Numbered from the stretch's first letter, positions 4,971-58,457 are shown. The stretch: DNA of 64,000 nt from Candidatus Magasanikiibacteriota bacterium (GCA_023246655.1 JAHFHX010000001.1:28648-92647); one strand, 5' to 3'. The notes: generated by a model not told the origin, from the letters alone. Translations and numbers: made by a program.

Positions 4971-5133
4971 CAATACTATTGTCGGAAGGCAATTTTTTTA
5001 GTAGTATAAATGTCGTGAGGAAAGGCGGAGAGGAGATAGGCTGCGTGGGCAACATGCAAAACCTATCTTCCTCTCCCAACCTCACATTGCAAGATACTCG
5101 GTAGAAGCCCGAGTTTTTTGTTTGCTCGGTTTT

Positions 5134-6393
5134 CTAATCCGTGAACACCACGCCCATGTTGAGGGCATCCTTGGCGCCGTGCACGAGTCTTCCGCGGCAG
5201 GCTGTCACCACCGCCTCGGCCGGGGAACGCTCGATGAAGTACACCACGAGGCGCGTGAAGCGCTCGTCCGTCGTGAGCTCCCCGTTCGCGTTGTAGTGCC
5301 GGAATTCCCGCTGGCGCCCCTTGAGCTCCCGCTGGAGGATGTAACGCCCACTGGAGCGCTGCGCTGCGTGGAGCGTGTCCTCAAACCTCGAATCATCCGA
5401 GAAGGCCACCCCCTTCGTCCCCGCCGAGATGGTCTCCTTGAGTACGTAGCGCTCCGTCAGGTTCGGGAGGGCGCCGTGCCGGGTCACGAGGTGGGTTTCC
5501 GGGAGATGCTGCCGGATCGTCTGGAGGGACTGCCCGCTCATCTGGGAACGGAGAATCGCTTCGATGTCGGCGTCATTCCCCGGGTTGCTGAGGATGGCGA
5601 GCAGGTTTTTCGAGCCCATGAAGGGCTTCGGCGGCATGAGGAACTTGATCTCGCCCTTCCGGTAGAGGTCGGCGAGGGCGTCGGTGAGGCGCGGGTTCTC
5701 GGTCATCACGGGGAAGTTCACGAGGGTACGCGTCGTCTCGCGCTCGCCGCGGATGATGAGATTCTGTCCGTCGACCGCCGTCTCGATCTCGTCGGCGACG
5801 ATGAGCTCGACCCCAGCGCTTCGGAGCGCCTGCCGGAGGATGTGAAACTCCGGGAGGTAGAAGCGCTCGCGGTGGCCGTAGAGGAAGACGAGCTGATCGA
5901 GGCCGCGCTTTTTGATCGCCGTCCCGAGACTCGTCCTGATCCCCGGGAGCGTGCTCGCGCCCGGGTTCACGGCCTCACGGATGGCGGCAAAGAGGGTCGC
6001 GTAGCCCATGGCCCGCCGGTTCATCGCGTCGATCTCGGCGATCCACAGGTGTCCCGCGGCGTCTTCCACGAAGTCAACCTTCACGATGAGCGGCGTCGTC
6101 GAGGGCTTCAGGAGCTGGAGCTCCCGGTGCGGCCGCGGCACCTCCATCGCGACAGCGTTCTTCAGGAGATCCCAGGTCTTGCCCGGGGCCAGCTCCCGCT
6201 GGTGGGCGATGGTCGCGATCCGCCCGAGGCCAGCGAGGCTCTCGGTGATCGCGGGGCCCAGGTGCTCGAGCTCCGTCCTCGCGCTCATGGGGAGCGGGAA
6301 GACATCCGGGGTGAGCAGGAAACCGTGCGTTTCCCGCCGTCCGCCGTCCCAGATACCCGATTCAATGACGATCTGTTCAATGAGCCTGTACAT
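5134..6393 (-). CDS. GC-rich (approx 62-65% GC) hypothetical enzyme, possibly ATP-grasp / glutathionylspermidine-synthase-like amidoligase; likely horizontally acquired
   Basis: 419-aa ORF with protein-like composition. The opposite-strand ORF 5122..6531 is an R/E/L-rich shadow. AAGGA sits ~6 nt before the ATG at 6393. The segment SKNLLAILSNPGN resembles the SNKxxLxxLW segment of GspS-like ATP-grasp proteins, but family assignment is tentative. A terminator hairpin follows at 5100-5130. Composition differs strongly from the AT-rich flanks. Confidence 0.55.
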   Translation of the reverse strand: MYRLIEQIVIESGIWDGGRRETHGFLLTPDVFPLPMSARTELEHLGPAITESLAGLGRIATIAHQRELAPGKTWDLLKNAVAMEVPRPHRELQLLKPSTTPLIVKVDFVEDAAGHLWIAEIDAMNRRAMGYATLFAAIREAVNPGASTLPGIRTSLGTAIKKRGLDQLVFLYGHRERFYLPEFHILRQALRSAGVELIVADEIETAVDGQNLIIRGERETTRTLVNFPVMTENPRLTDALADLYRKGEIKFLMPPKPFMGSKNLLAILSNPGNDADIEAILRSQMSGQSLQTIRQHLPETHLVTRHGALPNLTERYVLKETISAGTKGVAFSDDSRFEDTLHAAQRSSGRYILQRELKGRQREFRHYNANGELTTDERFTRLVVYFIERSPAEAVVTACRGRLVHGAKDALNMGVVFTD

Positions 6394-7053
6394 GGTTGTG
6401 TCCTTGCAGTGAGTTGTGGAAACGATTGTCGCTCGTTTCCTTGTTCGTCAGGTTTATACCCTGAAAGGTGTTCTCGTCACATTTCAAAGTACAAAAAACC
6501 CTGCGGTGGGCGCAGGGTAGAGTACAAATAAAGTGTACGCTAATAGTACCCGGCGCCAGTGGTGAGCCAGTTCCAGGCAAAATAATAAGTTGTGGGCAGT
6601 TGTGAGAACATACGTTATATAATAATACTGAGGATTGCAGATAGGTATTCTATGATAAATGTTGGTTGTTCATGAGGGCATTGCGGTTTTGTTATAAAAA
6701 ATAAACCGCCCGATGACTCGGGCGGTTGGTTTAGTAATTTTGTTATCAATTACAAAATTCACCACTCGAGCAAAGAGGGCAGGTGGTACGACCAAAACAG
6801 TGTAATAGAGTGGTGAGAAAATTTCATACAGTTTAAGAATAGTAGTATCGTAATGTTATTTATTTTTTCAGTCAAGCTAGAGTTGTTGATAACTTTATTT
6901 TAAGTATCAATAATGCCGTGGCGTTGAGAACCAATATTTTTTTGTGCCACCTGCTGCCAGTTGTTGGATATTTTATTTTTCCTTCGCAACATCACCAATA
7001 ATCTTGGCGATGTAGTAGAAGGGGAGAGGCGAAATTTTTTCACCTCTCCGCGG

Positions 7054-7127
7054 GGCCCCAGGGCGGATTTGAACCGCCGACTCGCAGATTTTCAGTCCGC
7101 TGCTCTGCCAGGCTGAGCTACCGGGGC
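7054..7127 (-). tRNA. tRNA-Phe (anticodon GAA)
   Basis: The reverse complement folds as a cloverleaf: acceptor GCCCCGG/CTGGGGC, D-arm GCTC-AGCCTGGCA-GAGC, anticodon stem GCGGA/TCTGC with loop CTGAAAA (anticodon GAA), T-arm GGCGG-TTCAAAT-CCGCC. CCA is not encoded. A hairpin at 7021-7050 follows the 3' end. Confidence 0.9.
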
Positions 7128-7187
7128 GGGAGACTTGGGGAGTCAGGGCCGCACGCGTTGCACGCGCGGCGCTGACATCCCGGGGGG

Positions 7188-7337
7188 TCACCGATCGGCG
7201 GCAGGAGGGGGCGCGACCGGACTCTTGCGCCGCCGCGGGGGCGGCAGTTCGAAGGGGTCCACGTGGAATTGTGGATCCTTCTTGATAGGGGGGTTCCCAG
7301 CGGGGGGCTGGGACGGGGGTGCCGGGGTGCGTTCCAT
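7188..7337 (-). CDS. small proline-rich ORF (49 aa) in GC-rich patch
   Basis: ATG 7337..7335 is preceded by AAGGAGA at a 7-nt spacing. Encodes MERTPAPPSQPPAGNPPIKKDPQFHVDPFELPPPRRRKSPVAPPPAADR. The listed 91/100-aa ORFs in other frames lack ribosome-binding sites. Speculative. Confidence 0.3.
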   Translation of the reverse strand: MERTPAPPSQPPAGNPPIKKDPQFHVDPFELPPPRRRKSPVAPPPAADR

Positions 7338-7914
7338 GCGCGTTTCTCCTTACCCCCTTGTAAGCGGGGGTTTGCCAAAGAGTCTCTCAGCACGAGAGGC
7401 GATTGACGCTAGTGCATCGCACGCTATCTCTTGCTGATTATTCTATTTGTCAAAATGAGTAATACGATATCCCGAGTGAGTCGGGATTGTTAACGTCGGC
7501 ATCGAGCTTCGTCCGCCTTTGGCGCACTCGCTCTCCGCTCGTCGTTAACAAAAAAACCGCCCGAAGCTCGGGCGGTTTGGAAATTTGTGTTATTTAGCAA
7601 CCACAAGTTCCACCGCCTGAGCCAGGGGAGGTAAAGTAGAAAAAGAAAACTTGATTTAAGCGGTTGGAATTCATAATATTTAAATGGTAGCACAGGTTGT
7701 TTCGGTAGTCAAATGGAACCTTGTGGATAAATAAAAATTGCGTTATACTGTAGGGTATGGAACTGGTACTAAGTTATTGTAATAAAGCCTCGTAGAGAGT
7801 GGTTTTCTTGCACCCAAACCCCGCTGTGGCGGGTCGTAATGGGCGCCGCGAAAATCACTCTCTATTTCGGCCCAAATTAGATAAAAATTAATGATAATTT
7901 AATACCTACCTTAT

Positions 7915-9075: not shown

Positions 9076-9214
9076 ATTTGAGGAAAAAAATATCCCGACT
9101 CAGTCGGGATATTTTTTGTTCCTTTATTGGCAGAAGGATACCAACAAAGGAACGGACGGAACGACGGACTCCGCGCCGAGTTGCGCGGTGTCTGCCGTTC
9201 CGTAGGTGGCGGGG

Positions 9215-9556
9215 CTATGCCCGCAAGCGGTTGCGGCGGCGATACTCCTGCGTGCGCCGCCGAGAATCAATTCGCGCCCAAAGCGACCGGATGGCTTCGA
9301 GCTCCTGCTCTTCGCGCCTGGCGCGCTCAATGCCCTTCCAAATCCTCTCGCGGCGACCGTTGTCGCTCGTCCGCCGGAGCAGGTCGACGAGGTGCATCCG
9401 TCGGCGGTGCACCGCGACGGAGCCGTTGTGCAGGAGATGCTCAATCTCCTGGCGATGTCCAAGACGCAGCGCCGCATGGAGCGGTCTGTGCCCGGGATAG
9501 AGCAACTGGGCGCTACGTATTAGCCGCCCGTAGCGTACGTCATCAAGGACAGGCAT
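9215..9556 (-). CDS. GC-rich small protein (113 aa) with a single ankyrin-like repeat and Arg-rich tail
   Basis: The ATG at 9556 is preceded by AAGGAGAAGG at a 7-nt spacing. The segment YPGHRPLHAALRLGHRQEIEHLLHNGSV fits the ankyrin consensus G-TPLH-AA--GH---V--LL--GA. It lies in a GC-rich patch at 9120-9560. The opposite-strand Arg-rich ORFs are shadows. Confidence 0.4.
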   Translation of the reverse strand: MPVLDDVRYGRLIRSAQLLYPGHRPLHAALRLGHRQEIEHLLHNGSVAVHRRRMHLVDLLRRTSDNGRRERIWKGIERARREEQELEAIRSLWARIDSRRRTQEYRRRNRLRA

Positions 9557-49785: not shown

Positions 49786-51630
49786 TTATTTCGGGGGATT
49801 TTTTTCTATATCCTCTACTACCAGTTGCAATTCTCGGTTTCCGTTCCATTCGTTTACTCCAACGGTAAAGGCTATATTAATTATATCGCCTGGTTTCAAA
49901 TTCACTTTCCAATTAGCCGGATGGCGTTCTGCATCTCCAAAACCAAACGCGATAGTTTTACGGACTACGTGAGAATTATGTTTTACCATAAGACGTAGGT
50001 GTTTGCCATCTTGTCCAACGGGTTCTACACCCATAACGGTGAGCCTATATGCAGCATACATTGGTTCTTCGTTGGCTTGGCCAAAGGGCGCAAATTTTTC
50101 TAAGAGATCATAGAGCTTCCAATTTATTTCATCCAAATCGATTTTAGCATCAATGTGAATTTGTGGGGTAAGATCGAGGTCAGCGCAACCAGCCGTGGCT
50201 TTTTCTAGCATCGTTTTTTTAAAATTCTCCAATATTTCTGGACTCTTTAACGAAAATCCACAGGCCTGCGGATGGCCGCCGAATTTTTGAAAAAATTCCG
50301 GAATAGTTTTGAGCGTTTCAATCATATTAAATCCAGGAACCGAGCGTCCCGAGCCGGTAATAATCTCATTATTTAACCCCATCACCAGAGTTGGTTTGTA
50401 GAATTCTTCTTTAAGACGACTGGCGATTAATCCTAAAATTCCAGTGCTCCACCCTTCGCCTAGAACAAACAAGATCGGATTCTTTTCTTGTTGCTGTTTC
50501 ACAATCTGATAACGTGCTTGGAGCACCAACTGTTCGGTTAATTTTTGACGGTCAACATTGCTCTTGGAGAGTTGCTCGGCGAGCTCCGTAGCTTCGGCTT
50601 CAGTTTCCGCCATAAGAAGCTTAAAGGCAGCGTTAGCGTGGTCCATGCGCCCGGCAGCATTAATACGGGGAGCAATTTGGAACCCAATCGTATGGGTATC
50701 AAACGTTCGTTTTGATTCACCATTCTCATTCACGAGCCCAGCAGAGATAAGTAGTTGTTTAAGTCCTCGATTGCGCGTTTTGTTAAGTACCATTAGGCCA
50801 TAGCTTACCATGGTTCGTGATTCCCCGGTGAGTGGCACCATGTCGGCAACGGTTGAGATTGCTACTAGATCTAGCAACCATTTTTCAAATGATTCATGTG
50901 ATTGACCGTCTGGAAACAATGGCGTAGTACTTATTTCTTGATGTCGTTTCAGTAGTGCCTGGACTAATTTAAATGCCACCCCACCGCCAGCCAAAGTTTT
51001 ATCGGGATATTTTTCTTTTGGAACCAAAGGGTGAATAATAGCATGAGCTGGAGGAAATACGGCCGGCATTGCGTGGTGATCGGTTACAATTACCTGCATT
51101 CCAAGATTTTTTGCCAAAGTAATTTCTTCTGTGTTGCTAATGCCACAGTCGCACGTTATAATAAGATCGGTTCCGCCATCTTTTAAAAATTGGACCGTGC
51201 GACTGTTGAGTCCGTAGCCATCAATTTCGCGATGGGGAAGAAAAATGTCGGTATTAGTGGCTCCTAATTTTTTAAGACATAACATGATCACAGCGGCGGC
51301 GCATACCCCATCAGCATCATAATCACCGTGCACGACAATTTTTTTATCATTCTTAATGCAATCAAAAATAATGGCCACGGCCTTTTCCATGTCATTAAAA
51401 AGAAACGGGTCATGGAGATCCGTCAAATAATCTGGATTCAAGAATTCATCAATTTGTTCCTGTGTTCTGAGCCCTCGATTCCAGAGGAGTTGAGCGATAT
51501 TCGCCAAGAGTTCCGGGTGTTCATTGAGGAATTCTTGAGGCGGTGGAGGTGCGATAATCCATTTTTTAGACACAAATGTAGGTAAGTAAGTTATTTCCCC
51601 ATTTCTTTTTTGGTAAATAATTTTTTCCAT
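49786..51630 (-). CDS. recJ: single-stranded-DNA-specific exonuclease RecJ
   Basis: DHH motifs VHGDYDADGVCAAAVIM and ITCDCG, and a DHHA1 domain with the GGH motif. Confidence 0.85.
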   Translation of the reverse strand: MEKIIYQKRNGEITYLPTFVSKKWIIAPPPPQEFLNEHPELLANIAQLLWNRGLRTQEQIDEFLNPDYLTDLHDPFLFNDMEKAVAIIFDCIKNDKKIVVHGDYDADGVCAAAVIMLCLKKLGATNTDIFLPHREIDGYGLNSRTVQFLKDGGTDLIITCDCGISNTEEITLAKNLGMQVIVTDHHAMPAVFPPAHAIIHPLVPKEKYPDKTLAGGGVAFKLVQALLKRHQEISTTPLFPDGQSHESFEKWLLDLVAISTVADMVPLTGESRTMVSYGLMVLNKTRNRGLKQLLISAGLVNENGESKRTFDTHTIGFQIAPRINAAGRMDHANAAFKLLMAETEAEATELAEQLSKSNVDRQKLTEQLVLQARYQIVKQQQEKNPILFVLGEGWSTGILGLIASRLKEEFYKPTLVMGLNNEIITGSGRSVPGFNMIETLKTIPEFFQKFGGHPQACGFSLKSPEILENFKKTMLEKATAGCADLDLTPQIHIDAKIDLDEINWKLYDLLEKFAPFGQANEEPMYAAYRLTVMGVEPVGQDGKHLRLMVKHNSHVVRKTIAFGFGDAERHPANWKVNLKPGDIINIAFTVGVNEWNGNRELQLVVEDIEKNPPK

Positions 51631-51998
51631 CTTAACTCCCGGAAGTCCCAGTACGAATCAGCTAAAAAACAGGTAAAGAGAATGAACATTAATTCCAGTG
51701 ACCAATACTCGGCAGCTGGGAGCGGGGTCTGGTAGCTCGCAAACAGCAGTATTCCAAATATAATCCAATAAACAACAGTTTTGGTTGTTAGATGGCGGAA
51801 TTCCTGTTTTTTTATGTGGCTCCGAATATGCCACAACATAATTCCATAGAGCATAATCACCGGTCCGGCAATGAACCATTCGTATTCATGGGGGTCAGCT
51901 CCCCACTGCTTCATGAGTGCGAATGCCGACCAGAGAATAGCGGACAAGGCAAAAAATAGAAATACGATATCGAGCTGGTATTTTCGGAGTAAGACCAT
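51591..51998 (-). CDS. hypothetical small membrane protein (135 aa, 4 TM)
   Basis: ORF with hydrophobic segments. Overlaps the recJ start by 40 nt. Confidence 0.4.
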   Translation of the reverse strand: MVLLRKYQLDIVFLFFALSAILWSAFALMKQWGADPHEYEWFIAGPVIMLYGIMLWHIRSHIKKQEFRHLTTKTVVYWIIFGILLFASYQTPLPAAEYWSLELMFILFTCFLADSYWDFRELRWKKLFTKKEMGK

Positions 51999-52104
51999 AC
52001 AACAATGCTAATCTACAAATTTTTATCCGAATTTACTAATGTCCTAGTAATGGCGAATATTAATTTGTCTTATTAGGATATTCGTAGATTCGGATTATAT
52101 ATGT

Positions 52105-52200
52105 TTATTGGAACGCCGGAGCAATAGTAAAAAAGAGCATCGCCACGATGCCAATAATAGCAATTAATATCCACAGAGCTTTGCGAGTTTTTCGTTTCAT
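52105..52200 (-). CDS. putative 31-aa single-TM small protein (MKRKTRKALWILIAIIGIVAMLFFTIAPAFQ)
   Basis: Not in the ORF track. Its ATG overlaps the stop of the upstream gene as ATGA (52197-52200), which suggests translational coupling. The peptide has a basic N-terminus followed by a hydrophobic helix. Confidence 0.3.
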   Translation of the reverse strand: MKRKTRKALWILIAIIGIVAMLFFTIAPAFQ

Positions 52201-52544
52201 ATACTAGTGGTTTTGTTTTTTAGACTGTAGCGAAAAGTGAGTCGCCATGTTCTATCTTGTTTTTGTTGTAACTCAATTTTAGATGTCTTAGCATCTTTTA
52301 GAGCAATATGATTGTTACTTGTATATCCTAAACCAACTAAGGTATCAAAAACTATTCCACCAGGGTGGTTCATTAATAAATCGACCTGGTCCTCGGAAGG
52401 GCGGCCGTCAAAATCAATTACAAACAGTGTATCTGTATTTGTGGTTGAAATTCTAACGTCGGTAATTCTTTTCAGCTCAAGATTACCCTCTCGACGTTGG
52501 GGGTTATAGCCAACTTCTTCTGTAAAGGGAGGTCGCCTGCGCAT
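52197..52544 (-). CDS. hypothetical protein (115 aa)
   Basis: ORF only. Confidence 0.4.
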   Translation of the reverse strand: MRRRPPFTEEVGYNPQRREGNLELKRITDVRISTTNTDTLFVIDFDGRPSEDQVDLLMNHPGGIVFDTLVGLGYTSNNHIALKDAKTSKIELQQKQDRTWRLTFRYSLKNKTTSI

Positions 52545-52559
52545 AGGTGAAAAATTTAA

Positions 52560-54449
52560 TTATCTTTTTAAAACTGCTAAATACGCTTCTGAAGGGATGT
52601 CTACTTTTCCGTGCGCTTTCATTCGTTCCTTGCCTTTCTTTTGTTTTTTCAGGAGTTTCATTTTTCGGGTCACGTCACCACCACTCATTTTAGCAAGCAC
52701 ATCTTTGCGCAAGGCAGAGAGTCGTTCGGCGGCAATTATTTTACCACCAATCGCAGCTTGAATTTTAAGTTCAAACTGTTGTTTTGGCAGACTCTCTTTG
52801 AGCGATTCCACAATTTTTTTACCTGTCGCATAAGCCGCATCTTTCCAAACCAGCGTGGTAAGTGCCTCGACCAGCTCTTCCGCAACCAGAATCTCCAACT
52901 TTACGACCTCGGTTGGCTCGTATTGTTTCAATTCATAATTCATGGAGGCATACCCGGACGTGACTGTCTTTAGCTTATCATAAAAATCAGTCACGAGCGA
53001 GGCTAGTGGGATTTCGTAATGCAAGAGTGCGCGTTGGTCTACGCCTGTGCTTAAGTACTCGGTATTGATATAGCGACCTTTACGTTCGGCAATGAGCCCC
53101 ATTACACTGCCAACGTAATCTTTAGGGGTAATGATATCAAGGGTCATCCAGGGTTCTTCGACCGTCATAATATAATTGGAGTCAGGCATTTCTTGTGGAC
53201 TCCGAACCAAGAGTTTATCCTCGTTCATTTTTTTTACACGGTACGCTACACTTGGTACGGTAATAATTATCTCCAAGTCGTGTTCGCGCTTCAAGCGTTC
53301 TTGAAAAATATCCAGGTGGAGCATTCCAAGGAAACCACATCGGAAACCAAACCCGAGCGCTTGGGAGTGTTCTGGTTCATACATCAAGGAAGAATCGCTT
53401 AATTTAAGTTTATCAATCGCGTCCCGGAGTTCCTGGTAGGCACTACCTTCTTTCGGAAAAATGCCAGCAAAAACCATGGGTTTGACTTCTTTATAGCCAG
53501 GGAGTGATTCGCGGGCAGTTGGATTGCTATCCTCATCAAGTGTCGTAATTGTATCACCCACACGACAATCCTGTACCTCTTTAAGGCCAGTTACGACATA
53601 ACCAATTTCACCATTCATGAGCCGTTCAGCCGGAACAAATTTAGGTGAGTAATAGCCAAGTTCTAGAATTTCCACCTCCGCATGCGTAGACATAAAATAA
53701 ATTTTGTCTCCCTTCTTGAGAGCCCCATCAACAATCCTCACGGAAGTAACCACTCCCTTATATTCATTAAATTGCGAATCAAAAATGAGTGCTCGGGCCG
53801 GTTTTATAGAGTTATCTGGTGGGGGAGGAATACGTTCCACGATCGCTGTAAGGATTTCGGCGACTCCGTGTCCAGTTTTTCCCGAAGCCAGGAGAATTTC
53901 ATTTTCTCGACATCCTAATAAATGTATAATTTCGGCTTTCGTTTTTTCTACATTCGCAATCGGCATGTCGATTTTGTTGATGACTGGAATAATGGTCAAA
54001 TTTTGTTCCAAAGCAAGATACAGGTTTCCAATCGTCTGTGCTTGTACGCCTTGGGTGGCGTCCACCAGGAGAATGGCGCCTTCCACAGCAGCGAGGGAAC
54101 GAGAAACTTCGTAATTAAAGTCGACGTGACCGGGAGTGTCAATGAGATTGAGGACTACGGTCGATGGACTACGGACTACGGCCTGATCACGCTGGTTGTC
54201 TGTGGTCTGTGGTCTGTGGTCTGTGGTCTCGTACAACATACGCACCGGCGCCAGCTTAATCGTTATCCCTCGTTCTCGCTCTAAATCCATACTATCAAGC
54301 AGTTGGCTTTTCATGTCACGTTTGGATACCGTTCCGGTTAATTCTAAAAAGCGATCAGCGAGTGTTGATTTGCCATGATCAATGTGAGCGATGATACAAA
54401 AATTTCTAATCCGAGTATTCATATTTTTACCTAGGCACCACCATATCAA
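52560..54449 (-). CDS. lepA: translation elongation factor 4 (LepA)
   Basis: G1 AHIDHGKSTLADR, G3 DTPGHVDF, and the C-terminal LepA domain. The G-domain contains an insertion encoded by short tandem repeats. Confidence 0.93.
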   Translation of the reverse strand: MIWWCLGKNMNTRIRNFCIIAHIDHGKSTLADRFLELTGTVSKRDMKSQLLDSMDLERERGITIKLAPVRMLYETTDHRPQTTDNQRDQAVVRSPSTVVLNLIDTPGHVDFNYEVSRSLAAVEGAILLVDATQGVQAQTIGNLYLALEQNLTIIPVINKIDMPIANVEKTKAEIIHLLGCRENEILLASGKTGHGVAEILTAIVERIPPPPDNSIKPARALIFDSQFNEYKGVVTSVRIVDGALKKGDKIYFMSTHAEVEILELGYYSPKFVPAERLMNGEIGYVVTGLKEVQDCRVGDTITTLDEDSNPTARESLPGYKEVKPMVFAGIFPKEGSAYQELRDAIDKLKLSDSSLMYEPEHSQALGFGFRCGFLGMLHLDIFQERLKREHDLEIIITVPSVAYRVKKMNEDKLLVRSPQEMPDSNYIMTVEEPWMTLDIITPKDYVGSVMGLIAERKGRYINTEYLSTGVDQRALLHYEIPLASLVTDFYDKLKTVTSGYASMNYELKQYEPTEVVKLEILVAEELVEALTTLVWKDAAYATGKKIVESLKESLPKQQFELKIQAAIGGKIIAAERLSALRKDVLAKMSGGDVTRKMKLLKKQKKGKERMKAHGKVDIPSEAYLAVLKR

Positions 54450-54476
54450 ATTTGATACCTTTATATCGTATTCTGT

Positions 54477-56099
54477 TTATAACCCTTCAGCCTCATCAAT
54501 CCCTGCCGGTACATTCCAGAGCCGAAGCCAACGGCGCTTGAGGCTGGCGTGCAGATGTATCATTTCATGTACCTTTAGGCAGTAACAAATTATTCCGTAC
54601 ACCAAAAGCCCTACCGTACCAGAAATAAACCCTTGCAACAGAATACCCCAAAAGCGGTTAAGATCAAGTACCCCAGCGAGTGGAAATTTGAGGAATTGGA
54701 TAGTGAGCCCCATCGCGCAGGCGGCGATAGCAACCCTATAGAACATGTGGAATAATTTTCCTTCCTCAATCGAACCTGATTCTATCCGCAGAGCAATAAT
54801 GAGCATGAGAGCGTTAAGTATTGCGCCAATTGAACTCGCGAGAGCAAGCCCGGCCACGCCAAGCGGTCTCATTAGGATGAGGGCAGCAATAATTGCTATC
54901 AGTTCAGCAATGACGCCAAGAGTAAAGGGAGTTTTGGTATTGGAAAGAGCGTAGAACGCTCGGGCGTAGAGTGGAACAAGAGACTGGGCAAAGAGTCCGA
55001 GCGCAAAGAATGCTAGTGTGTTGGCAGTGGCGATGGTAGCTCGCCAATCAAAGGCGCCAGTACCATAAAAAACACGTACAATTTGTGCACGCAAGAGCAG
55101 AATAATTATTGCAATTGGAATAATAAGAAACAGGATTTGCCGTGTCGTGGCGCTGAGGTGTTCAATAAAACCAGCTCCATTTTTTTTTGCTACCATGGTT
55201 GAAAGTACTGGAAATACTGCCAACGCAAATGGTATGCCAATAATACCAATTGGCACGCCCTGTAAATTGTTCGCTAAATTATAAACTGTTATGCTCCCCG
55301 CCGGCAGGAAGGATGCTAATATGGTAACCACCACGACATTCAGTTGGGTGATAGCAAGGCCAAGCGTGCGTGGAATCATCAATTTACCAATGGTGAGCGT
55401 GTTGGTGTCTTTAAGATTAAATGACCAGTGCCAGCGAAAACCGCTGGCATAGGCCCCATAACATTGAATCCCAGCGTGGAGGAGAGCTCCCAGTACTACC
55501 CCGGCTGCAAGACCTTGAATCCCGAGGGCTGATTTTGTAAGGAGGGTGGCTCCGAGAATAATTCCAATGTTATAAAAGATTGGTGCAATGGAATAGAGAA
55601 TAAATTGTTTCAGGGATTGTAAAATGCCCCCTAGCACCATGGAGATTCCTAAGAGAACCGGAGAGAGGAACATGATGCGAGTGAAGGAAAGTACGAGTTG
55701 TTGGTTGGCGCCCGAGAATCCTGGTGCAATAATTTTGGATAATGGTGCGGTAAAAATTATGCCGAGTCCGAATAAAACCACTAGGGCTAAACCAACAATA
55801 TTAATAATATTATTAGCTAACCGCCATGCTGGAGCTTTATTATCATTGGTATAAAAAAGTTTGGTGAAGGTAGGAATAAACCCTGCGGTTAGTGCTCCTA
55901 CAATGAGTAAATTATAAATTAAGTCAGGAATTTTAAATGCCGCGTAGTAAGCATCCAGTACTGCTCCGGCCCCAAAATAATGTGCAAAAACACGATCGCG
56001 GACTACACCAACCAGGCGACTCGTCAACGTCGCCACTGCAATAACGATCGCAGCGCCGGTAATTGATTTAGATTCAGCAGTTAATAAGCGTGAAATCAT
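54477..56099 (-). CDS. murJ: lipid II flippase MurJ (MviN family)
   Basis: N-terminus AAIVIAVATLTSRLVGVVRDRVFAHYFGAGAVLDAYYAAFKIPDL is a MurJ signature. About 14 TM segments. Confidence 0.88.
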   Translation of the reverse strand: MISRLLTAESKSITGAAIVIAVATLTSRLVGVVRDRVFAHYFGAGAVLDAYYAAFKIPDLIYNLLIVGALTAGFIPTFTKLFYTNDNKAPAWRLANNIINIVGLALVVLFGLGIIFTAPLSKIIAPGFSGANQQLVLSFTRIMFLSPVLLGISMVLGGILQSLKQFILYSIAPIFYNIGIILGATLLTKSALGIQGLAAGVVLGALLHAGIQCYGAYASGFRWHWSFNLKDTNTLTIGKLMIPRTLGLAITQLNVVVVTILASFLPAGSITVYNLANNLQGVPIGIIGIPFALAVFPVLSTMVAKKNGAGFIEHLSATTRQILFLIIPIAIIILLLRAQIVRVFYGTGAFDWRATIATANTLAFFALGLFAQSLVPLYARAFYALSNTKTPFTLGVIAELIAIIAALILMRPLGVAGLALASSIGAILNALMLIIALRIESGSIEEGKLFHMFYRVAIAACAMGLTIQFLKFPLAGVLDLNRFWGILLQGFISGTVGLLVYGIICYCLKVHEMIHLHASLKRRWLRLWNVPAGIDEAEGL

Positions 56100-56839
56100 G
56101 GTGATGGTGGGGCAAAATTGAGTGTGAGTAACGCATACGCCGTACCAATTTTTTGCTCTTCGGTGCGGGCAATGGTGAGTGTCCCCGCAGTGTCATTCTT
56201 GTTAAAGGTAATTTGTCTGCTGTTGCTATTTTGATTCTCTTCGGAAATTGTATATCCTGCTTTGCGCAACTCCTTTTTATAGTACGACATAATAAACCCT
56301 GGCTCAGCATCAAGATTTTTCCATTCAATTTCTATACTATCACGCGGGTCACCAACCGGTGTTTGAATTAACTGCCAGATTCGTTTAAGGTAGTGAGATT
56401 GCTCTTCTGATGGCGTTGGTTCTGGTTCGGACGCTGTGCTGTAGTTGGAATTAGTACGTAGTAATAGTGGTGATAAAATAATTTTTGGGAAGAAAGCGGC
56501 TAATTCAAGACCGCGGCTTTTATATTTTCCCGAGATAAATGTTATTTGTTCAATATTGTCTTTATCATAGAGTGGAATATCGATTGGAAAATGAGCGGGA
56601 AGTGTTTTTATGGTTTTTGGACCTGGGCCAATAGCCAACCACACAGCGATAATGATTGCAATTACAAAAAGTATCACACTACTGCAACCAGTGAGACAGG
56701 TGCGACGGAAGCCAGAATGATGTTTGCTTAATTCTTCAATTGGTGGTTCAACAATTTCGATTTTGTCGATATTCGGACGACGCATAGATATAATATAAAT
56801 CGACGGAATTACAGATACAAAAAAATTACCTCCGTACAC
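56096..56839 (-). CDS. hypothetical membrane-anchored protein (247 aa)
   Basis: One TM segment then an extracytoplasmic domain. ATGA overlap with murJ suggests the same operon. Confidence 0.45.
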   Translation of the reverse strand: MYGGNFFVSVIPSIYIISMRRPNIDKIEIVEPPIEELSKHHSGFRRTCLTGCSSVILFVIAIIIAVWLAIGPGPKTIKTLPAHFPIDIPLYDKDNIEQITFISGKYKSRGLELAAFFPKIILSPLLLRTNSNYSTASEPEPTPSEEQSHYLKRIWQLIQTPVGDPRDSIEIEWKNLDAEPGFIMSYYKKELRKAGYTISEENQNSNSRQITFNKNDTAGTLTIARTEEQKIGTAYALLTLNFAPPSP

Positions 56840-56987
56840 CCGGCTTGTTTCTTGTAGTATAGCAATAAAGTTCGTTTTTGCCTAGCCTAGACTATATTGC
56901 TCTTTTGTTAAGCGACTGATATACTTAACACAGATTATGCGGATTACAATCTGTGTAATCCTCACAAAAATGTGTGTAATCTGTGTT

Positions 56988-58457
56988 ATGCGTATTACTT
57001 TTTTCGGTGCCGCCGGTGAGGTAACTGGTTCTTGTAGTCTGCTTGAAGTCGGTCCCTATAGAATTCTAATTGATTGCGGGATGTTTCAGGGCAGCCTTGA
57101 AATGGAAGCTATGAATCATCAGGCATTACCTTTTGATCCTAAGAGTTTGACCCATGTTTTTATTACCCATGCGCATCTTGACCATACCGGCCGGCTGCCG
57201 CTCTTGGTTAAGCAGGGGTATGTTGGCTATTTTTATGCCACTGCCCCCACCATGGAGCTCGCGGAATTGGTCATGCGGGACGCTCATGGCATCATGTTAT
57301 ATGATCATCAACATTTTGGTCGGCCAATTCTATATGGCGAAGAAGATATTGCTGGTGTAATGACCCAGTTTAAGACGGTGGAGTATGGGGAAGAGATGGA
57401 ATTCCCCGCTTGGGCGGGGAAGGCCTCGCAGCCAGGGGTGGGTGAGACCATTGAGTCGCCACTTGCCACTGCCACGCAACGACCTCACCCACCCCTACCC
57501 CGCCCAAGCGGGGAATCGAACGTTGCCGAAAGTGTCACCGTCACCTTCCACGACGTCGGCCACATTTTTGGTTCGGCCTTTATTGAGATCAGAGCCGAAG
57601 GCAAAAAAATTGTTTTCTCCGGAGATGTCGGCAACGTTCATGTGCCAATTTTACGCGATACAGAACCACTCCCGTCTAACCTTGATCTCTTGGTGTGTGA
57701 GTCCACGTACGGCGATCGCCTGCATGAAGTGCAGGCCACGCGTGAAGAAATGATTGAACAAGCGATCCTTAACGCCGTTAAAGGTGGGGGAGTGCTTATG
57801 ATTCCGTCATTTGCTTTGGAACGGACCCAAGAACTTATTTATGAACTTAACAAACTCATTGATCACAAACATAAACTAACCAACGTCCCCATTTATCTGG
57901 ACAGCCCGCTCGCCATTGATGCTACCAAAGTGTATCGCAAGTACCCACAATATTATGACGAAAAAGCCGCCGAATATTTTAAAGAGGGTGATGATATTTT
58001 TACCTTTCCTAATCTCATTACCACTTATTCTCGGGAAGAGTCAATGAAAATTAATCACACGCCGGGCCCCAAAGTTATTATCGCTGGCGCCGGCATGATG
58101 AACGGCGGCCGCATCCTCCATCACGCTCTTCATTATTTATCTGATGCCCGTAACACCATTCTTTTCATCGGCTATCAATCACCCAGCACCCTCGGCCGAC
58201 AAATTATGGAAGGCCACTCTCCGGTCACGGTGCACGGTGAACGCGTAGTCGTTAAATGCCAAATAAAAGTTATGGGCGCGCTCTCGGCGCACGGCGATCA
58301 AAATAAACTGGTGAGTTGGATTAGCGCCGGTCGGCCCAAAAGAGTTATCTTCAATCATGGGGAACCCGGGCCCTCTGCGGCGGTGGCGAAAAGGTTGCAG
58401 CAAGAATGCGGTGTTGAAGCTGCTCCAGCAGTGCTCAATTCAACCGTTATTGTTTGA
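56988..58457 (+). CDS. MBL-fold metallo-hydrolase, RNA-metabolising beta-CASP nuclease (RNase J-like)
   Basis: MRITFFGAAGEVTGSC and HAHLDHTGRLP (HxHxDH), plus beta-CASP motifs. Contains an in-frame 38-codon GC-rich insert at 57402-57515. The start codon is embedded in the conserved upstream motif. Confidence 0.8.
   Translation: MRITFFGAAGEVTGSCSLLEVGPYRILIDCGMFQGSLEMEAMNHQALPFDPKSLTHVFITHAHLDHTGRLPLLVKQGYVGYFYATAPTMELAELVMRDAHGIMLYDHQHFGRPILYGEEDIAGVMTQFKTVEYGEEMEFPAWAGKASQPGVGETIESPLATATQRPHPPLPRPSGESNVAESVTVTFHDVGHIFGSAFIEIRAEGKKIVFSGDVGNVHVPILRDTEPLPSNLDLLVCESTYGDRLHEVQATREEMIEQAILNAVKGGGVLMIPSFALERTQELIYELNKLIDHKHKLTNVPIYLDSPLAIDATKVYRKYPQYYDEKAAEYFKEGDDIFTFPNLITTYSREESMKINHTPGPKVIIAGAGMMNGGRILHHALHYLSDARNTILFIGYQSPSTLGRQIMEGHSPVTVHGERVVVKCQIKVMGALSAHGDQNKLVSWISAGRPKRVIFNHGEPGPSAAVAKRLQQECGVEAAPAVLNSTVIV

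Follow-up and report, generated by a model that had tools for sequence, protein, structure and literature searches.

The described enzymes closest to the protein reported here are the Escherichia coli peptide-spermidine ligases YgiC and YjfC (PDB IDs 7uka and 7uk6), the glutathionylspermidine and trypanothione synthetases, the eukaryotic-type glutathione synthetases, and the fungal ligase Cp1B. The protein itself, of 419 residues, is encoded on the minus strand at positions 5134 to 6393 of a 64,000-nucleotide stretch from a Candidatus Magasanikiibacteriota bacterium (GCA_023246655.1, JAHFHX010000001.1:28648-92647), which was analysed over its full length and is called the window below. Taking the parts together, we consider it probable that the protein is an intact, circularly permuted ATP-grasp ligase sharing the structural and mechanistic class of these enzymes, that it belongs to a distinct Patescibacteria family, and that its operon was relocated or rearranged and broken inside the gene for a haloacid dehalogenase (HAD)-like partner, with the ligase still looking functional. 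The family has so far been seen only in Patescibacteria.

The known ligases occur in contexts of their own. YgiC and YjfC are found in E. coli next to the YgiB/TolC or YjfI-M genes, and E. coli Gss (PDB ID 2io7) carries an N-terminal CHAP amidase domain. The eukaryotic-type glutathione synthetases of human, yeast, and plant (PDB IDs 2hgs, 1m0w, and 3kal) have a three-domain, circularly permuted ATP-grasp fold. The partners of the CP_ATPgrasp_2 (Pfam ID PF14403) and 3n6x-type bacterial proteins are alpha-E and transglutaminase-like domains. Cp1B (PDB ID 9cjn) is part of a fungal gene cluster for E-64 biosynthesis, where it couples epoxysuccinate to hydrophobic L-amino acids; its residues R139, D141, E163, and N165, which are equivalent to the R-x-D...E-x-N quartet discussed below, surround the nucleotide, and each is required for activity (PMC12568646). 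The physiological substrate of YgiC is not known (PMC11762307).

The window ligase departs from each of these systems. It shows 11-14% identity to YgiC and YjfC and no match to their Pfam family, and its family is accompanied by a capless HAD-like gene and a structured leader instead of the E. coli neighbours. The CHAP domain of Gss is missing, the counterpart of Gss E391 is R175, that of Gss N332 is an Asp, and no thiol or polyamine context like that of Gss or trypanothione synthetase was found around the ligase. The three-domain permuted fold is shared with the eukaryotic-type glutathione synthetases, at 12-14% identity, with the window ligase being about 50 residues shorter; no GshA-like (gamma-glutamylcysteine ligase) gene is present in the surveyed ligase neighbourhoods. 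No oxygenase or amide-bond synthetase partner, as would fit the context of Cp1B, lies in the window. CP_ATPgrasp_2 does not match the window ligase or its close relatives and gives weak matches in just 6 of 43 distant relatives; its partner domains are absent beside this family, where the HAD-like gene alone recurs.

Family, fold and predicted catalysis

5134-6393, minus strand: coding sequence of 419 residues, predicted circularly permuted ATP-grasp carboxylate-amine ligase (GspS/YgiC/eukaryotic glutathione synthetase-like) of an unnamed, Patescibacteria-wide family
K105, D107, E120, D122, E176, K262, and K319 of this protein: putative catalytic set

The open reading frame (ORF) starts with ATG, stops with TAG, and is a genuine coding sequence, since it has full-length homologs, retains 62 of 66 highly conserved family positions, and yields a confident AlphaFold model. 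A reading made earlier from the sequence alone had reported this ORF with a strong bias in GC content among codon positions, which holds (GC 0.657; GC1/GC2/GC3, the values for the three codon positions, are 0.65/0.43/0.89), and had pointed to the motifs FLMPPKPFMGSKNLLAILSNPGN and YILQRELKG...FRHY, both present in the translation. The plus-strand ORF over the same region (5122-6531, GC1 of 0.82), dismissed in that reading as a shadow, is indeed one: its sole matches are mirror images of the ligase matches, and GC3-rich genes are expected to cast such antisense ORFs. A conserved antisense gene opposite the ligase was considered and rejected, the antisense ORFs of loci L009 and L014 spanning part of the gene only.

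The best homolog matches with an E value of 4.6e-124, 49% identity, and 100% coverage. The word-indexed search returned 32 full-length homologs, and an exhaustive profile search returned 394 representative clusters at E <= 1e-3. Homologs with a gene name are without exception called "hypothetical protein," and the named hosts are Magasanik-, Doudna-, Woyke-, Nomura-, Morani-, Kerfeld-, Berkel-, Shapiro-, and Andersenbacteria and Paceibacterota, all of them Patescibacteria. An exact copy of the window protein was not found by lookup in the assembly collection. The ligase is also seen in seven metagenome-assembled genome (MAG) records titled "uncultured Gammaproteobacteria," "Pseudomonadales," or "Bdellovibrionales" (L016, L017, L021, L024, L034, L041, and L055), all with the adjoining HAD gene except L041, which has no HAD gene, and L055, which has no upstream sequence; these titles may be unreliable, because the module is otherwise seen in Patescibacteria only. 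Two distant members, P0103 (601 aa) and P0114 (619 aa), have basic, partly low-complexity N-terminal extensions of 170-190 aa. A Rosetta-stone fusion to the HAD partner was rejected for both, as neither extension is a HAD domain or matches a Pfam family.

The sequence-only reading could not place the protein in a named family, and neither could we: Pfam has no match of any family at E <= 1, including GSP_synth, GSH_synth_ATP, and GSH_synthase; NCBIfam has none; PDB has no usable match by sequence or by close-family profile; and PADLOC and PHROGs give nothing usable. No confident match to an unrelated family appeared in these searches either. The AlphaFold model (mean predicted local distance difference test [pLDDT] score of 93.4, predicted template modeling [pTM] score of 0.92) has the three-domain permuted ATP-grasp fold, with the top Foldseek matches being eukaryotic-type glutathione synthetases (E about 6e-17, TM score 0.61-0.69), followed by YgiC/YjfC and GspS. 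Profile-profile alignment of a merged 73-sequence family profile with an E. coli YgiC/YjfC/Gss alignment gives an hhalign probability of 94% (E of 1.3e-7, 311 columns); this required the merged profile and the three-sequence alignment, with single-sequence comparisons being weak against YgiC (probability of 43%) and failing against Gss. The ligase is related to the GSP_synth, GSH_synth, and CP_ATPgrasp_2 Pfam families and a member of none; for GSP_synth, we speak of a related family because the homology was found by profile-profile comparison only. What is new is the family, which has no name as yet; the enzyme class is well known, and the system is not of a new kind.

The alignment places K105-x-D107 on R316-x-D318 of Gss and E120-x-D122 on E330-x-N332, so that the R-x-D...E-x-N quartet of the nucleotide/acyl-phosphate site is present, with Lys in place of Arg and Asp in place of Asn as two conservative substitutions. 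Two lysines also have counterparts in Gss, K262 aligning with K498 and K319 with K533. E176, in the invariant ERFY motif, aligns with Gss E392 and YgiC D185, and the preceding R175 is not acidic. D107, E120, E176, K262, and K319 are invariant among the close family, K105 (or Arg) and D122 (or Glu) are at least 90% conserved, and D107, K262, and K319 are still invariant in members at 21-29% identity. In the 2006 GspS structure paper, K498 and K533 of Gss reportedly bind the ATP phosphates, and E391/E392 are said to be the acidic pair at the spermidine (amine) site; for Gss, the residue letters were verified.

The suggestion of an ATP-grasp-type ligase in the sequence-only reading is thus supported by the predicted fold, the profile-profile homology, and the K/D/E residue set, which is present and mostly invariant in the family. 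We read the window protein as a predicted active, acyl-phosphate-forming carboxylate-amine ligase, because the aligned catalytic residues and the 62 of 66 conserved positions are kept. In the proposed mechanism, ATP would be held by K262 and K319 and Mg2+ by D107, E120, and D122; the substrate carboxylate would be phosphorylated to an acyl-phosphate, with K105 stabilising; and an amine nucleophile, probably placed by E176, would attack to give the amide, ADP, and Pi. The substrate class proposed earlier, a peptide or polyamine, rests on analogy with YgiC. Placing a "hypothetical protein" among the acyl-phosphate-forming amide ligases makes it a testable enzyme.

With glutathione synthetases leading the structural matches, the protein could also be a true ortholog of glutathione synthetase or glutathionylspermidine synthetase with a role in thiol or polyamine metabolism, which we regard as highly improbable. 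The named Pfam and NCBIfam models fail to match, identities to characterised members of the class are 11-15%, Gss E391 of the amine site has no acidic counterpart in the window ligase, which has R175 there, and the conserved partner is HAD-like, neither an amidase nor GshA. Even YgiC, a much closer relative of GspS, lacks glutathionylspermidine synthetase activity (PMC11762307). It is also very unlikely that the ATP-grasp fold is used otherwise, for example as a kinase, or that the enzyme acts on the HAD-like protein itself.

The HAD-like partner and the truncated operon

Ligase neighbourhoods were sampled through six look-ups and 50 species-representative loci. Of the 46 loci with upstream sequence, 44 have a HAD-like gene (138-154 aa) as the adjoining upstream gene, in the orientation of the ligase, and this gene is the sole recurrent neighbour (41 of 48 scanned loci). 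No third conserved neighbour was found in these loci, the next commonest being aminoacyl-tRNA synthetases in at most 8. The partner, of about 145 aa (for example, L009:5341-5778 and L014:5457-5897), is a HAD core without a cap: its best PDB matches, 2hoq and YfnB, align around the missing cap, and every match to a named NCBIfam HAD family stays below the cut-off. It retains the nucleophile Asp, the Lys, and the Mg-binding motif IV (GD...E), and the Asp+2 general acid/base is replaced by Asn, sometimes by Phe or Met, with motif I reading D-[YF]-N-R-T in 38 of 43 sequences and sometimes DFFRT or DFMRT. In the usual arrangement, the ligase lies directly downstream of this capless, HAD-type phosphatase-like gene, behind a structured, attenuator-like leader RNA. 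Patescibacteria have very small genomes and many conserved genes without assignment, and a two-gene module kept with a dedicated structured leader across many lineages probably matters to the physiology of these bacteria.

In the window, the arrangement is incomplete. The relevant features are as follows, where L009 is the closest relative with a retrieved locus.

6394-6614, minus strand: leader (the former HAD-ligase spacer), 221 nt, 47-48% GC, with the layout of the 222-nt spacer of L009
6401-6405, minus strand: Shine-Dalgarno-like AAGGA, 7 nt before the ATG, with equal spacing in L009
6413-6423, minus strand: GTTTCCACAAC box (TT-N1-4-ACAAH), just upstream of the Shine-Dalgarno-like sequence
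6498-6518, minus strand: terminator-like hairpin ACCCTGCG-CCCAC-CGCAGGGT, then TTTTTTG, 125 nt before the ATG (121 nt in L009)
6547-6557, minus strand: candidate antiterminator GGCGCCGGGTA, complementary at 10 of 11 positions to TACCCTGCGCC at 6509-6519
6615-6707, minus strand: remnant of the HAD 3' end (...PQCPHEQPTFIIEYLSAILSIII, stop at 6615-6617), the best match to the HAD hidden Markov model in the window, the remainder of the gene being absent
6704-6727, minus strand: tRNA-Phe terminator hairpin (terminator scan), overlapping the 5' edge of the HAD remnant at the approximate breakpoint
7052-7127, minus strand: tRNA-Phe (GAA) (ARAGORN, Rfam), the nearest same-strand gene upstream of the ligase
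56840-56936, no strand: 97-bp intergenic gap between a 227/247-aa gene and a beta-CASP/metallo-beta-lactamase (MBL) gene, where L014 has the HAD-ligase pair

A search with the HAD profile found no intact partner gene in the 64-kb window. What is left immediately upstream of the ligase is a remnant of about 25-30 codons, which tblastn aligns with residues 116-144 of the L003/L009 HAD proteins (E of 2.8e-4 within the region) and which abuts the terminator hairpin. Its final 23 residues (PQCPHEQPTFIIEYLSAILSIII plus stop) score 49 with BLOSUM62 against the C terminus of the L009 HAD protein, a score reached by 1 of 1,577 stop-anchored window peptides, namely, the remnant. The gap from the remnant stop to the ligase ATG is 221 nt, compared with 222 nt in L009. 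The operon would have been cut in the HAD gene, leaving these codons, the leader, and the ligase beside tRNA-Phe.

Window positions 49789-58457 are collinear with positions 1-7677 of L014, a Candidatus Magasanikbacteria groundwater MAG, over four genes: LepA (62% identity), a MurJ-like protein (49%), the 247/227-aa protein (26%), and the beta-CASP/MBL protein (49%). This collinearity suggests that the window derives from a related Patescibacterium. The synteny gap and the remnant together indicate that the module is missing at the site equivalent to that of L014 and present, though broken, 50 kb away. The module may have been relocated within the lineage, or a second copy may have been acquired and the first then lost. 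Integration at tRNA-Phe was considered and rejected, as the repeat search found no att-like direct repeat flanking the ligase and there is no integrase.

The orphan state is not unique to the window, because two further ligases (L041:3816-5060 and L047:6001-7254) have no HAD-like gene within 3-6 kb; L041 has kept the leader all the same. The window copy indicates that the ligase can persist without an adjacent partner.

Leader RNA and the case for function

The HAD-ligase spacers measure 79-239 nt across loci. Those of the Paceibacteria type show strong conservation and support for two mutually exclusive folds, which compete for the GTAGCCCC arm. In fold 1, a long helix of 22 pairs, 91.7% of the cells are paired, against 38-54% in register-shifted controls, and fold 2, composed of a 5' stem, a shared middle stem, and a terminator-like hairpin, reaches 84% against 33-49%. 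Each fold has 10 compensatory pairs; the folds were derived from the same related sequences used in testing, which makes the controls indicative only. The element is about 126 nt long (L025:5860-5989 on the plus strand; others include L035:2073-2201, L052:5861-5989, and L041:3697-3786). Rfam 15 gave no leader match at the gathering score for 11 loci and none at E <= 10 for L025.

With a covariance model of the Paceibacteria-type leader, the element is found at 27 loci, each time directly ahead of the ligase; some 10 of these are distinct loci outside the seed, L041 among them. A metagenome scan for the exact 21-mer core gave 31 matches, 22 of them in HAD or ligase context. The idea of a leader regulon beyond the module was rejected, because the 9 context-free matches fail the covariance model, and for the same reason the leader appears to be exclusive to the HAD-ligase module. 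The element is a candidate for a new class of riboswitch or attenuator and offers, through ligand binding, a second handle on the system besides the enzyme.

The same model (R1) finds no match in the window or in its closer relatives, whose leaders are variants. In the window leader, the length, the position of the terminator, the offset of the antiterminator, the ACAAC box, and the Shine-Dalgarno spacing agree with the L009 variant, a comparison of two sequences only, and the global DNA alignment of the two spacers scores better than 1,998 of 2,000 shuffles. In both leaders, the candidate antiterminator precedes the terminator arm by 38 nt (offsets 57/95 and 63/101), and RNAduplex gives -17.5 kcal/mol for the antiterminator against -14.2 kcal/mol for the terminator stem in the window; the two structures may form a switch. 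The TT-N1-4-ACAAH box is more frequent in ligase leaders (24 of 42) than among 405 upstream regions used as controls (16%; odds ratio of 7.1, for loci that are not independent).

Several observations weigh against a functional ligase behind a working attenuator. The activity of the family is a predicted one, and its identity to all characterised ligases is at the low level given above. Of the quartet, Asp (or Glu) stands in the family where E-x-N has its Asn, and Lys mostly takes the place of the Arg. The hhalign register becomes uncertain over the C-terminal third, where no convincing counterparts exist for the invariant Q354, R381, H405, and G406. Having lost its partner gene, the window copy could be non-functional in vivo. 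Finally, no sigma-70-like promoter is predicted in the approximately 175 nt between the terminator at 6727-6704 and the hairpin at 6518-6498, which is where the attenuator model needs one.

These last points bear on whether the window copy is a relic, decaying after it lost its HAD partner and the operon promoter. Besides the truncated partner, two same-strand terminators separate the nearest upstream gene from the ATG, no promoter is predicted upstream of the leader terminator, and four substitutions (C52S, G128A, L223T, and W378R) fall at positions that are >=87% conserved. We nevertheless judge decay to be unlikely. No stop interrupts the reading frame, the putative catalytic residues are all kept, as are 62 of the 66 conserved positions, the strong codon bias persists, and the Shine-Dalgarno-like sequence, the leader hairpin, and the ACAAC box are intact, while L041 and L047 show ligases living without an adjacent HAD gene.

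Base composition and the local neighbourhood

The window has a GC content of 44%, against 65.7% for the ligase ORF, whose GC3 of 0.888 lies about 8 standard deviations above the median of the other 47 long ORFs (median of 0.409, standard deviation of 0.057; native genes, 0.25-0.51). The codon choice follows suit: in the ligase, 84% of the Leu codons are CTC, 88% of the Ile codons ATC, and 86% of the Lys codons AAG, and the shares in native genes are 19%, 17%, and 26%, respectively. Codon optimisation was rejected as the cause, because the highly expressed DnaK retains the native AAA, GAA, ATT, and TAT where the ligase takes the G- or C-ending codons AAG, GAG, ATC, and TAC. The pattern looks foreign.

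One possibility that we take seriously, though we find it doubtful, is that the ligase is a foreign island, acquired by recent horizontal transfer out of a GC-rich donor genome. The deviating GC3 and codon choice favour it, as do the non-syntenic site beside a tRNA and two more GC-rich patches within 4 kb. The co-inherited sequences, however, do not share the composition: the HAD remnant has 31% GC and the leader 47%, so the GC shift starts at the ATG and stops at the stop codon. Intact operons show the same contrast, with GC3 values in L008/L009 of 0.71/0.79 for the ligase, 0.44/0.51 for the HAD gene, and 0.48/0.52 for the flanks. Over 42 loci (L008-L057), ligase GC3 averages 0.094 above the flank median (a positive difference in 34; in 21, the ligase exceeds all flanking ORFs), whereas HAD GC3 averages 0.060 below it (6 of 40 positive); nominal P values for this asymmetry are overstated, because the loci are phylogenetically related. 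The repeat search found neither an integrase nor att repeats, and with the best homolog being only 49% identical, a donor is not identifiable. Extreme cases of the GC3 asymmetry are L030 (0.68 versus 0.27), L012 (0.56 versus 0.24), and L036 (0.71 versus 0.44).

The GC enrichment is thus largely a property of the ligase ORF, strongest in the clade of the window, since the HAD genes match their flanks and the leader and remnant are not GC-rich. Strong enrichment can belong to a single ORF and not to a transferred island, which calls for caution with composition-based calls of horizontal transfer. The abrupt jump in composition could also suggest an assembly chimera or contaminant read-through, to which we give next to no credence: the jump matches the start and stop codons, the ORF is bordered by the pgl terminator at one end and by a leader and HAD remnant specific to the family at the other, and the named family members are from the same phylum as the syntenic relative of the window.

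A wider reading can be offered as a tentative one, rather unlikely to hold in full. The HAD/ligase pair may form a Patescibacteria-wide, two-enzyme pathway to a new amide conjugate, with the ligase gated by a new class of metabolite-sensing riboswitch or attenuator that has two exclusive, covariation-supported folds, and its GC3 would then arise from a gene-specific selective or recombinational force and not from transfer.

The pentose-phosphate neighbourhood noted in the sequence-only reading is confirmed and is of the oxidative branch: plus-strand genes for 6-phosphogluconate dehydrogenase (6PGD), glucose-6-phosphate dehydrogenase (G6PD), glutamate dehydrogenase, and 6-phosphogluconolactonase lie upstream, and the other side of the ligase holds tRNA-Phe and a class I/II aminotransferase gene. 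A segment of about 300 nt that adjoins tRNA-Phe on its upstream side (positions 7128-7440, minus strand like the tRNA) has 62-69% GC and a minimum free energy of -140.2 kcal/mol (z score of -5.8 against shuffles). No Rfam match at E <= 1 and no convincing ORF were found there, and the region may represent a structured RNA outside the known classes or else a long leader of the tRNA.

A GC-rich ORF of 113 aa at 9215-9556 (minus strand) has coding-like GC1/GC2/GC3 values of 0.74/0.47/0.75 and is located amid native plus-strand genes; it contains an ankyrin-like PLHAALRLGHRQEIEHLLHNG stretch and has no Pfam match. Two kinds of terminator-like hairpins occur twice each, one with the core ACCGCCCGA...TCGGGCGGTT at 6699-6735 and 7546-7585 and one with the core ATATCCCGA...TCGGGAT at 7467-7487 and 9092-9112, where the arms are 95% complementary. 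Their recurrence suggests a terminator module that is reused in the local intergenic regions.
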